From a plasmid, in assembly GCF_055900595.2 (NCBI RefSeq), contig NZ_JBVWEU010000011.1: a DNA stretch of 3,995 nt. The stretch is one strand, 5' to 3'. Position numbers and translations under genes: made by a program. How positions within the stretch are numbered: the first letter of the stretch is position 1; every line of letters starts with the position of its first letter. The notes below the pieces were generated by a model. The model saw only the letters and a program-made list of their open reading frames with translations, was not told the DNA's origin and did no database searches. Shown one piece after another: positions 3,107-3,995 of the stretch.

Positions 3107-3640
3107 ATGATAATACAAGAAGAACATAACATCGATTTTTTTAAAAATCAAATGCCTAACAAGCCTTATTGTACAAATAACCTCGATATGGGATTAAGCA
3201 TAAGGAACAAGGCAAAAGCCCTTGAAATGCTGTATTTACAGGCAAATCAGCCAGCCATTCAAACTTGCTTACTCTTTGATCTAGATAAGAAAAATTCATT
3301 CTATACATTTGAGCAGGTGGGCTTACCCATACCTCACTTTATTACAAAAACACCAAAAACAGGTCGTTGTCACTACGGCTATATGCTGAAAGCCGGGGTT
3401 TGTAAGACACAACAAGCAAGGTTAAAGCCGTTGAAGTATGCCGCAGCCGTTGAAATGGCTATGGCGAAAAAACTAAAAGCAGATCTGGGGTTTGCTGGAT
3501 TGATTACAAAAAACCCACTCAATGATCACTGGTCGCCGTTCTGGTCAGGTGCTGACCTTTATGACCTGGATTATTTAGCTGATTTTGTGGACTTAGAAAA
3601 GCCTCAAATACAAAAGAAAAAAGCGAGGCTTATGGTTTAG
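3107..3640 (+). CDS. rep: Plasmid replication initiator, N-terminal primase-like replicase domain (ColE2 / pAL5000 RepA-type); reading frame ends prematurely, probably by frameshift
   Basis: AAGGA RBS (3094..3098) 8 nt before the ATG. LLFDLD (acidic D-x-D motif) followed by PIPHFITKTPKTGRCHYGYML (G...H..Y motif) fits the archaeo-eukaryotic-primase-like replicase fold of plasmid Rep proteins. The frame stops at TAG 3638..3640 while the homologous C-terminal domain continues in the -1 frame. Confidence 0.7.
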   Translation: MIIQEEHNIDFFKNQMPNKPYCTNNLDMGLSIRNKAKALEMLYLQANQPAIQTCLLFDLDKKNSFYTFEQVGLPIPHFITKTPKTGRCHYGYMLKAGVCKTQQARLKPLKYAAAVEMAMAKKLKADLGFAGLITKNPLNDHWSPFWSGADLYDLDYLADFVDLEKPQIQKKKARLMV

Positions 3641-3654
3641 GTCGCAATGTTAAT

Positions 3655-3960
3655 TTGTTTGAAGATCTACGGCAATATGCTTACAGAACGGTTTTAAATT
3701 TCAAAAAAATATCCACTTTCGAGAAATTCGAAAACGAACTACTATTAAAGGCACAGGGCTTAAACACTTTTTGCAATCCACAAAACCCGTTACAATACAA
3801 AGAGATAAAAGCAACAGTTAGAAGTGTAGCCCGTTGGACTTGGAAAAATTTTGATAGCCATACATTTTCACAAATCCAATCAAACAGAGCCAAAAAACCT
3901 CGAAAAACCAATGTTAAAAATGAAATGTTAGACATATTAATGAGCAAGGGGGTTTTATGA
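3655..3960 (+). CDS. rep: Replication initiator C-terminal part, PriCT_1-like domain; the open frame actually begins at 3583, so this is probably the 3' portion of the same rep gene
   Basis: Translation of the open frame from 3583 gives ...KSEAYGLGRNVNLFEDLRQYAYR...EIKATVRSVARWTWKNF, matching the G-x-RN-x-x-LF...R and ...ARSVA(K/R)(W/Y) pattern of primase C-terminal-1 domains in ColE2-type Rep proteins. The GRN motif lies upstream of the first start-type codon (TTG 3655), which argues against an independent gene. Confidence 0.65.
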   Translation: MFEDLRQYAYRTVLNFKKISTFEKFENELLLKAQGLNTFCNPQNPLQYKEIKATVRSVARWTWKNFDSHTFSQIQSNRAKKPRKTNVKNEMLDILMSKGVL

Positions 3961-3995
3961 TCATTAATGGTAAAAAAATAAAAGCAAAAGAAATA
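3957..3995 (+). CDS. Probable 5' end of the HTH protein gene, running off the window end and in-frame with 1..225 if the replicon is circular
   Basis: ATG 3957..3959 overlaps the rep stop TGA (3958..3960) as ATGA and is preceded by AGGGGG (3947..3952) with a 4-nt spacer. The 13 codons MIINGKKIKAKEI are open to the window end; joined to position 1 they give ...KIKAKEIMEMTGRSERTVRKY, completing a plausible HTH. Confidence 0.4.
   Translation, partial: MIINGKKIKAKEI

Follow-up and report, generated by a model that had tools for sequence, protein, structure and literature searches.

According to published accounts, the origin of replication (ori) of ColE2 comprises 32 bp downstream of the rep gene (PMC6856555; PMC3632715), the replication primer is AGA (PMC5304414), the origin DNA is unwound by the Rep protein through its PriCT-1 domain plus a helix-turn-helix (HTH) (PMC5862659), and rep is controlled by RNAI (PMC6856555). 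For pAL5000, replication is stated to need RepA plus a DNA-binding RepB (PMC7157519), and a 2012 paper links RepB, by its title alone, to the extracytoplasmic function (ECF) sigma factors. The DNA considered here, 3,995 nucleotides of contig NZ_JBVWEU010000011.1 (NCBI RefSeq assembly GCF_055900595.2; the whole stretch is hereafter termed the window), encodes a primase-like Rep and a small HTH protein. The segment running from 2944 through 3995 and on to 225 is interpreted as a pAL5000-type theta replicon that has two components and is related to ColE2, a reading of the module as a whole to which the sequence comparisons lend a probability of roughly 75 %.

The last open reading frame (ORF) exits the end of the window and resumes in frame at base 1, the 3995-bp window representing a complete small circular plasmid. 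Megablast comparison identified 38 PLSDB records covering at least 80 % of the window, mostly 3998-bp plasmids, from Klebsiella pneumoniae, Enterobacter, Citrobacter and E. coli hosts and typed as MOBQ-mobilizable. The annotated relatives carry five genes, coding for Rep (284 amino acids; aa), an 87-aa protein whose gene overlaps rep by 4 nt, a TraD-like protein, a hypothetical protein and a MobQ relaxase. In the window, the 5' part of rep (3107-3640, plus strand) encodes the Replicase/archaeo-eukaryotic primase (AEP) domain (Pfam PF03090, E 4e-32) in a frame of 177 aa that is closed by a premature TAG at 3638-3640, and the 3' part (3623-3960, plus strand), in the -1 frame relative to the 5' part, encodes the PriCT_1 domain (E 4e-7) and a short basic tail. 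The initial annotation of this DNA had described a primase-like Rep with replicase and PriCT_1 domains; both domains are borne out, but it had missed that rep is not a single ORF in the window, the stop codon interrupting it and the PriCT part lying in the other frame. The AEP catalytic residues D58, D60, H89 and D126 are invariant in the Rep alignment. Rep shares 35 % identity with the Rep of Neisseria gonorrhoeae pJD1, the closest of the references, 33 % with the ColE2-type Rep of Shigella pSSE, 30 % with pN30 RepA and 28 % with pAL5000 RepA. In the alignment, the window Rep ends ~25 residues ahead of the ColE2-type HTH tail (...LKPWEALGISRATYYRKLK), which is present only in the ColE2-type protein, every RepB-partnered Rep stopping short of it. 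The 'Rep' chain of PDB 3vw4, which we take to be the ColE2-P9 DNA-binding domain, aligns with the PriCT part only (E 1.5e-4), and an NCBIfam scan of Rep and RepB returned no match above the cut-offs.

The repB-like gene occupies 3957-3995 (first 13 codons, plus strand) and 1-225 (remainder, plus strand), and codes for 87 aa in total, comprising a first HTH (HTH1), a basic linker helix and a sigma-region-4-like second HTH (HTH2). Its ATG overlaps the rep TGA (ATGA, 3957-3960), a junction correctly seen in the initial annotation, and its GGGGG Shine-Dalgarno sequence sits within the 3' end of rep. The sigma-region-4-like HTH reported there likewise stands, with matches of the small protein to HTH_23 (E 2e-9) and to Sigma70_r4_2 (E 9e-7; 28.9 bits, above the Pfam cut-off of 25.7). 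BlastP comparison showed 43 % identity over 61 aa with RepB of Rhodococcus pN30 (E 2e-14), 37 % over 75 aa with a pCASE1 protein (E 2e-13) and 32 % over 62 aa with pAL5000 RepB (E 1e-6). A tblastn search against plasmids gave 188 records, including 40 Rhodococcus plasmids, Corynebacterium casei pCASE1 and pN30, the match in the last of these being annotated as 'replication protein RepB'. Judged by these searches, the small protein is a homologue of the RepB proteins of pN30, pCASE1 and pAL5000. An alignment of thirteen RepB sequences displays one shared architecture of HTH1, a basic linker (SQPRExYExEAxxRRxKA) and HTH2, and an AlphaFold2 model of the RepB-like protein (predicted local distance difference test score, pLDDT, 87.6) places helices at residues 10-17, 21-28, 32-51, 56-63 and 67-81. 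Comparison of this model against the PDB using Foldseek gave no significant whole-chain match and only weak partial matches to generic HTH and sigma-4 fragments, and a PDB sequence search with RepB gave chance-level matches only. A RepB profile search retrieved at least 809 cluster representatives, which are small proteins on small contigs, and the source names of family members include RepB, 'plasmid replication protein' and 'sigma factor-like HTH'. Across 31 two-gene loci of Proteobacteria and Actinobacteria, repB starts between -14 and +4 nt from the rep stop codon, and the ATGA junction also occurs in pAL5000 itself.

A candidate ColE2-type ori core (GGGCTGTTATCTGATATGGTTA; 2944-2965, plus strand) is situated 142 bp upstream of the rep ATG and is conserved in the two-gene relatives. 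The ColE2-type ori 20-mer has a single match in the window, at 2946-2965 with three mismatches (17/20), and matched 0/200 shuffled sequences; the TCT at 2953-2955 would be the template of an AGA primer. One CAGATAA repeat (the complement of TTATCTG) is found in the window core, with the second repeat absent. All diverged enterobacterial relatives have this core upstream of rep, as do Neisseria pJD1, Rhodococcus pN30 and pCASE1, and pAL5000 carries a variant core (ATCTGACTTGGAG) directly upstream of repA. The core of the ColE2-type pSSE (GCGCTGTTATCTGATAAGGCTTATCTGGTCTCA) lies 9 bp past the rep stop codon on the opposite strand, in agreement with the 32-bp ori described downstream of rep (PMC6856555, PMC3632715). 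No ori-core match occurs in the window downstream of rep or of the HTH gene, and several relatives have their next gene as close as 9-16 bp past repB, so that a downstream ori has no room there. Homology to a plasmid with a different mobilization backbone begins exactly at 2944 and continues through rep into repB; the replicon module can therefore be delimited as 2944 to 225. A putative rep promoter (2975-3002, plus strand) consists of a -35 hexamer TTGACA (2975-2980), a 16-nt spacer and a -10 hexamer TAGAAC (2997-3002). Both hexamers are conserved in relatives; a consensus promoter scanner made no rep-promoter call because the -10 hexamer does not end in T. As a separate observation, the motif CCAGCACAGCCAGATC followed by AGCCTTCGGCCT occurs ~200-300 bp upstream of rep, and upstream of the ori core, in five loci (L010, L012, L014, L015 and L016) and is absent from the window.

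Between the ori core and the -35 hexamer lies a variable 9-bp 'specificity box' (GACGCACAC; 2966-2974, plus strand), which co-varies with HTH1 and takes the form AGCTCCCCAC in L011-type replicons. Three near-identical replicon pairs differ almost solely in two places, of which one spans the final ~80 nt of rep and the initial ~120 nt of repB (HTH1) and the other directly follows the core. Among 17 replicons, box similarity tracks HTH1 similarity (Mantel r 0.54, p 2e-4), and the association persists when Rep core and HTH2 are controlled for (partial Mantel r 0.49, p 2e-4). Mean box similarity is 0.88 for pairs with at least 80 % HTH1 identity, and 0.53, equal to background, for pairs with the same HTH2 and different HTH1. 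These patterns suggest that the 9-bp box may be read by HTH1, or by the co-varying Rep tail. Two tandem ori cores, each with an adjacent box and 59-84 bp apart, are present upstream of rep in four loci (L013, L019, L048 and L071) and downstream of rep in three (L028, L032 and L058).

Species-representative genomes were scanned with a six-sequence Rep alignment, which yielded 46 loci, and 60+ loci were compared overall, all of them with a Rep profile, a RepB profile and the strict core motif. Where a short Rep is combined with a separate RepB, the core lies upstream and on the rep strand in 26/26 loci with the strict motif, and where a long single Rep is encoded it lies at or just past the stop codon on the opposite strand (13/13 loci). 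With variant cores, the same rule holds for four more two-gene loci (pAL5000 among them) and for two more single-Rep loci. Every short Rep sampled has a coupled RepB, and every long Rep is without one. Profile-profile comparison (hhalign) of fifteen single-Rep tails with RepB HTH2 gave a probability of 96.8 % (E 2.3e-10, 39 columns); the thirteen-sequence RepB alignment compared by hhalign with one ColE2-type Rep was not significant, significance being reached only with the fifteen-tail profile. In two loci the RepB profile matches the Rep C-terminus directly. If the AGA primer site is conserved, leading-strand synthesis would leave the ori away from rep in both layouts.

In a rough neighbour-joining tree, the window Rep is placed within a proteobacterial two-gene clade and outside the actinobacterial pAL5000 clade. 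A clean separation of two-gene from single-Rep proteins was not supported, with 0/100 bootstraps, and the split state thus does not form a single clade. As the two-gene state occurs in several clades, with single Reps nested at two places, the split and fused states appear to have interconverted more than once. These comparisons raise a broader proposal, for which the odds are about even: RepB would be a detached ColE2-type origin-recognition module, the split or fused state would strictly track the place and facing of the core, and in the split form HTH1, with the adjacent Rep tail, and the 9-bp box would make up an exchangeable specificity cassette, through which small plasmids sharing an enterobacterial host would diversify in compatibility.

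The rep leader contains a hairpin (3036-3085; sense-strand loop UUUUGGCGAC) which on the minus strand would form the terminator stem-loop of an antisense RNA, with a 14-bp stem, a minimum free energy of -24.7 kcal/mol and a z-score of -3.4. In six sequences, 5/11 consensus pairs of the hairpin covary, with changes on both sides. The candidate antisense RNA of ~90 nt (3025-3118, minus strand) covers the rep Shine-Dalgarno sequence (3094-3098) and the start codon, and parallels the RNAI of ColE2; the T-run after the hairpin and the antisense layout are conserved in relatives. Its putative sigma-70-like promoter (3151-3123, minus strand) is located within the first rep codons and consists of TTGATT (3151-3146), a 17-nt spacer and TATGTT (3128-3123), with TTGATT, TTGACT or TTGCAA and TATGTT, TATGGT, TATATT or TATAAT in the diverged relatives. 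The Rfam CopA-like family (RF00042) gives a match at 3028-3118 of 27.7 bits against a gathering score of 60 (E 0.057). As in the CopA-like RNAs and ColE2 RNAI, the candidate would be a ~90-nt countertranscript with a long hairpin over the rep leader, and it has in common with the CopA-like RNAs a CGCCAA loop complementary to UUGGCG in the target, the resemblance being one of design and loop motif.

The members of the pAL5000 family, here Mycolicibacterium fortuitum pAL5000, Rhodococcus pN30 and Corynebacterium pCASE1, share with the window the order ori, repA, repB, a RepA with Replicase and PriCT_1 domains and no HTH tail, a small homologous sigma-region-4-like RepB, overlapping repA and repB genes, and an ATCTGA..GG ori core just upstream of repA. 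The window differs from them in its gammaproteobacterial host, its guanine-cytosine (GC) content of 37 % as opposed to 62-65 %, the length of its RepB (87 versus 119 aa) and the candidate CopA/RNAI-like antisense RNA over the rep leader, for which no search was made in the actinobacterial plasmids. With the ColE2-P9/ColE3 type (representatives: Shigella pSSE and the Aeromonas pAsa plasmids), the window shares the homologous primase-type Rep and, as candidates, a core with the TCT/AGA primer site and one CAGATAA repeat and the antisense RNA over the rep leader. However, the ColE2-type HTH forms part of the Rep polypeptide, whereas the window encodes it in a coupled gene of its own, along with an additional HTH1; the ColE2-type ori lies 9-15 bp past the stop codon on the opposite strand, in contrast to the core upstream of rep and on the rep strand in the window; and the ColE2 type has two CAGATAA repeats where the window has only one. 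The initial annotation had likened the ori-repA-repB layout to pAL5000 rather than to ColE2, and had found the element to be AT-rich, unlike pAL5000. The latter is evident from the GC contents (37.3 % in the window, 64.9 % in pAL5000), and the pAL5000-type interpretation is supported by the Rep without an HTH tail, the RepB homology, the ATGA junction and the upstream ori-like core, with the caveats that the candidate ori core and the predicted antisense-RNA control are ColE2-like, that Rep belongs to a proteobacterial clade and that the AT-rich repeats are very unlikely to be the origin.

The pJD1 plasmid provides a proteobacterial two-gene layout with the core upstream, as in the window. Its small protein consists of HTH1 and a short second HTH very close to the ColE2 tail, with KPWE..GISRAT.YR in common (14/21 identical). 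In pJD1 (L008, 2122-3237), and also in L014 and L021, the small HTH gene shares the reading frame of rep, with a single stop codon between the two, unlike the ATGA overlap of the window, and one point mutation would fuse these genes into a ColE2-like single Rep.

In the proposed mechanism, RepB would be made in fixed proportion to Rep via translational coupling and would supply in trans the origin-recognition HTH that ColE2 Rep has in cis. HTH1 would read the variable 9-bp box beside the core and so set replicon specificity, with HTH2 contacting a conserved element. Rep would open the core and, as in ColE2, make a short primer (AGA) on the TCT at 2953-2955, which the host polymerase would extend leftwards, away from rep. 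The ~90-nt antisense RNA is expected to pair with the rep leader, limiting the translation of Rep and RepB and setting the copy number.

Several points weigh against the two-component interpretation. In the window plasmid, ori activity, RepB binding and the requirement for RepB are all inferred, and the Rep tree is a rough one. The similarity of HTH2 to the single-Rep tails may reflect the general resemblance of sigma-region-4/LuxR-type HTHs and not a specific split or fusion. The antisense promoter is a consensus-like match only, and the antisense RNA, scoring under the Rfam gathering threshold, is not a member of the CopA-like family. The frameshifted rep copy, if the sequence is correct, would yield little full-length Rep. 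The C-terminal tail of Rep co-varies along with HTH1 and could be the box reader instead, and the box abuts the -35 hexamer, an arrangement equally compatible with a pure autorepressor. The last point bears on the alternative that the small HTH protein does no more than regulate the rep operon, as a transcriptional autoregulator or a copy-number repressor, with Rep alone recognising and firing the origin. The sigma-region-4-like HTH2 has a fold that reads -35 elements, such as the TTGACA which the variable box at 2966-2974 directly adjoins, and the title of Stolt and Stoker (1997) mentions a pAL5000 'regulatory region'. Against this alternative, Rep lacks the HTH with which ColE2 Rep binds and unwinds its ori, all short Reps sampled have a coupled RepB and no long Rep does, and pAL5000 is stated to require both proteins (PMC7157519). 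An exclusively regulatory role thus seems unlikely, and autoregulation and a role in replication are not mutually exclusive for RepB. Hardly any credence can be given to an ordinary ColE2-type replicon in which a single Rep is sufficient, the ori lies immediately downstream of rep and the HTH gene is an unrelated passenger. The 33 % identity to the ColE2-type Rep, the core sequence and the ColE2-like antisense control would suit it, but the window lacks both a downstream core match and a C-terminal HTH tail on Rep, and the HTH gene encodes a RepB homologue that accompanies rep on MOBQ, MOBP and non-mobilizable backbones alike. It is also very improbable that the AT-rich repeats at 2568-2634 constitute the origin, as iteron-like sequences or a DNA-unwinding element. 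The initial annotation had pointed to these repeats, and they do lie upstream of rep, at a distance of 470-540 bp; the origin role that it implied is not borne out, as they fall outside the module starting at 2944. The ~30 % GC content over 2572-2943 and the imperfect 10-bp tandem and inverted repeats would fit such a role; against it, the repeats score under the usual threshold of Tandem Repeats Finder (TRF), relatives with this replicon on a different backbone lack the region, their homology beginning at 2944, and ColE2-family origins are short and without iterons.

The rep frameshift of the window most likely stems from a homopolymer error in sequencing or assembly. Pairwise alignment with the 3998-bp relative NZ_CP079688.1 revealed three differences in total, each a 1-nt homopolymer deletion in the window: G5 for G6 at 274, T7 for T8 at 2781, and A6 for A7 at 3617-3622 (plus strand), the last being the frameshift site. 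Single-nucleotide deletions confined to homopolymers are typical of errors in long-read or flow-chemistry sequencing. The artefact is favoured because all three differences are homopolymer contractions, two of them in non-coding DNA, and because 617 contigs encode the intact 284-aa Rep. Records of the truncated 177-aa product come from four independent contigs, which would suit a genuine frameshift, either in a defective plasmid maintained in trans or with low-level -1 slippage on the A-run restoring the wild-type protein. Reading one A of AAAAAAG twice gives ...QKKKSEAYG..., identical to the A7 allele, so that a real allele would be leaky. Given the error signature and the prevalence of the intact allele, a genuine frameshift is unlikely.

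On sequence grounds, the module belongs to a known type: it is a split initiator like that of pAL5000, falls within the ColE2 superfamily and resides in an enterobacterial lineage of AT-rich plasmids. This lineage is abundant and has been annotated before, but the literature that could be searched contains no experimental description of it. Of most interest are the comparative regularities, namely the rule of ori position and orientation, the correspondence between HTH2 and the fused tail, and the pairing of HTH1 with the box. The exact RepB sequence occurs on at least 1000 contigs, and these ~4-kb plasmids are very frequent in Klebsiella, Enterobacter, Citrobacter and E. coli from clinical and wastewater sources, with MOB-suite typing in PLSDB giving no replicon cluster for most of these plasmids. 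Recognition as split-initiator ColE2 relatives would provide them with a defined minimal replicon of ~1.3 kb and a candidate ori, and the HTH1-box pairing offers a testable specificity code for incompatibility typing and vector design. The comparison of split and fused initiators further represents a natural experiment on origin recognition by a primase-initiator. Near-identical copies of the window plasmid are found in records labelled Erysipelotrichia metagenome-assembled genome (MAG), Hallella, Bilifractor and Mycobacterium tuberculosis (L018-L022; cluster members), labels that most likely reflect contamination or mis-binning and not the true host range. The Proteus mirabilis plasmid p13153-OXA-58 (L067) carries the carbapenemase gene blaOXA-58 together with a two-gene replicon of the window type.

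Outside the replicon module, the AT-rich stretch directly after the mobQ stop codon (2568-2634) consists of imperfect 10-bp repeats, GTAGTATATA in 3.7 copies and ACTTAATACA in 2.9 copies, with TRF scores of 46 and 37 (default threshold 50), and is flanked by a 21-nt inverted repeat (2565-2585 and 2635-2655). Minus-strand ORF fragments at 2649-2981 were considered as relics of toxin-antitoxin or other genes and rejected, with no Pfam match in the window or relatives. A PADLOC scan returned nothing meaningful, and no cer/dif-like Xer site was found in the window. Downstream of the repB-like gene, an ORF-free stretch with 51 % GC (226-420) is absent from the relatives on other backbones. Between the convergent repB-like and TraD-like genes, a hairpin with flanking A- and T-runs (AAAAAACCAGCCAAGATCGGCTGGTTTTTT; 427-457) resembles a bidirectional terminator. 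An inverted repeat, ACGTCGC-TT-GCGACGT, followed by ATGGGCCCTGCGGGG (1303-1335), is situated ~45 bp upstream of the MobQ relaxase gene and represents a candidate origin of transfer (oriT).

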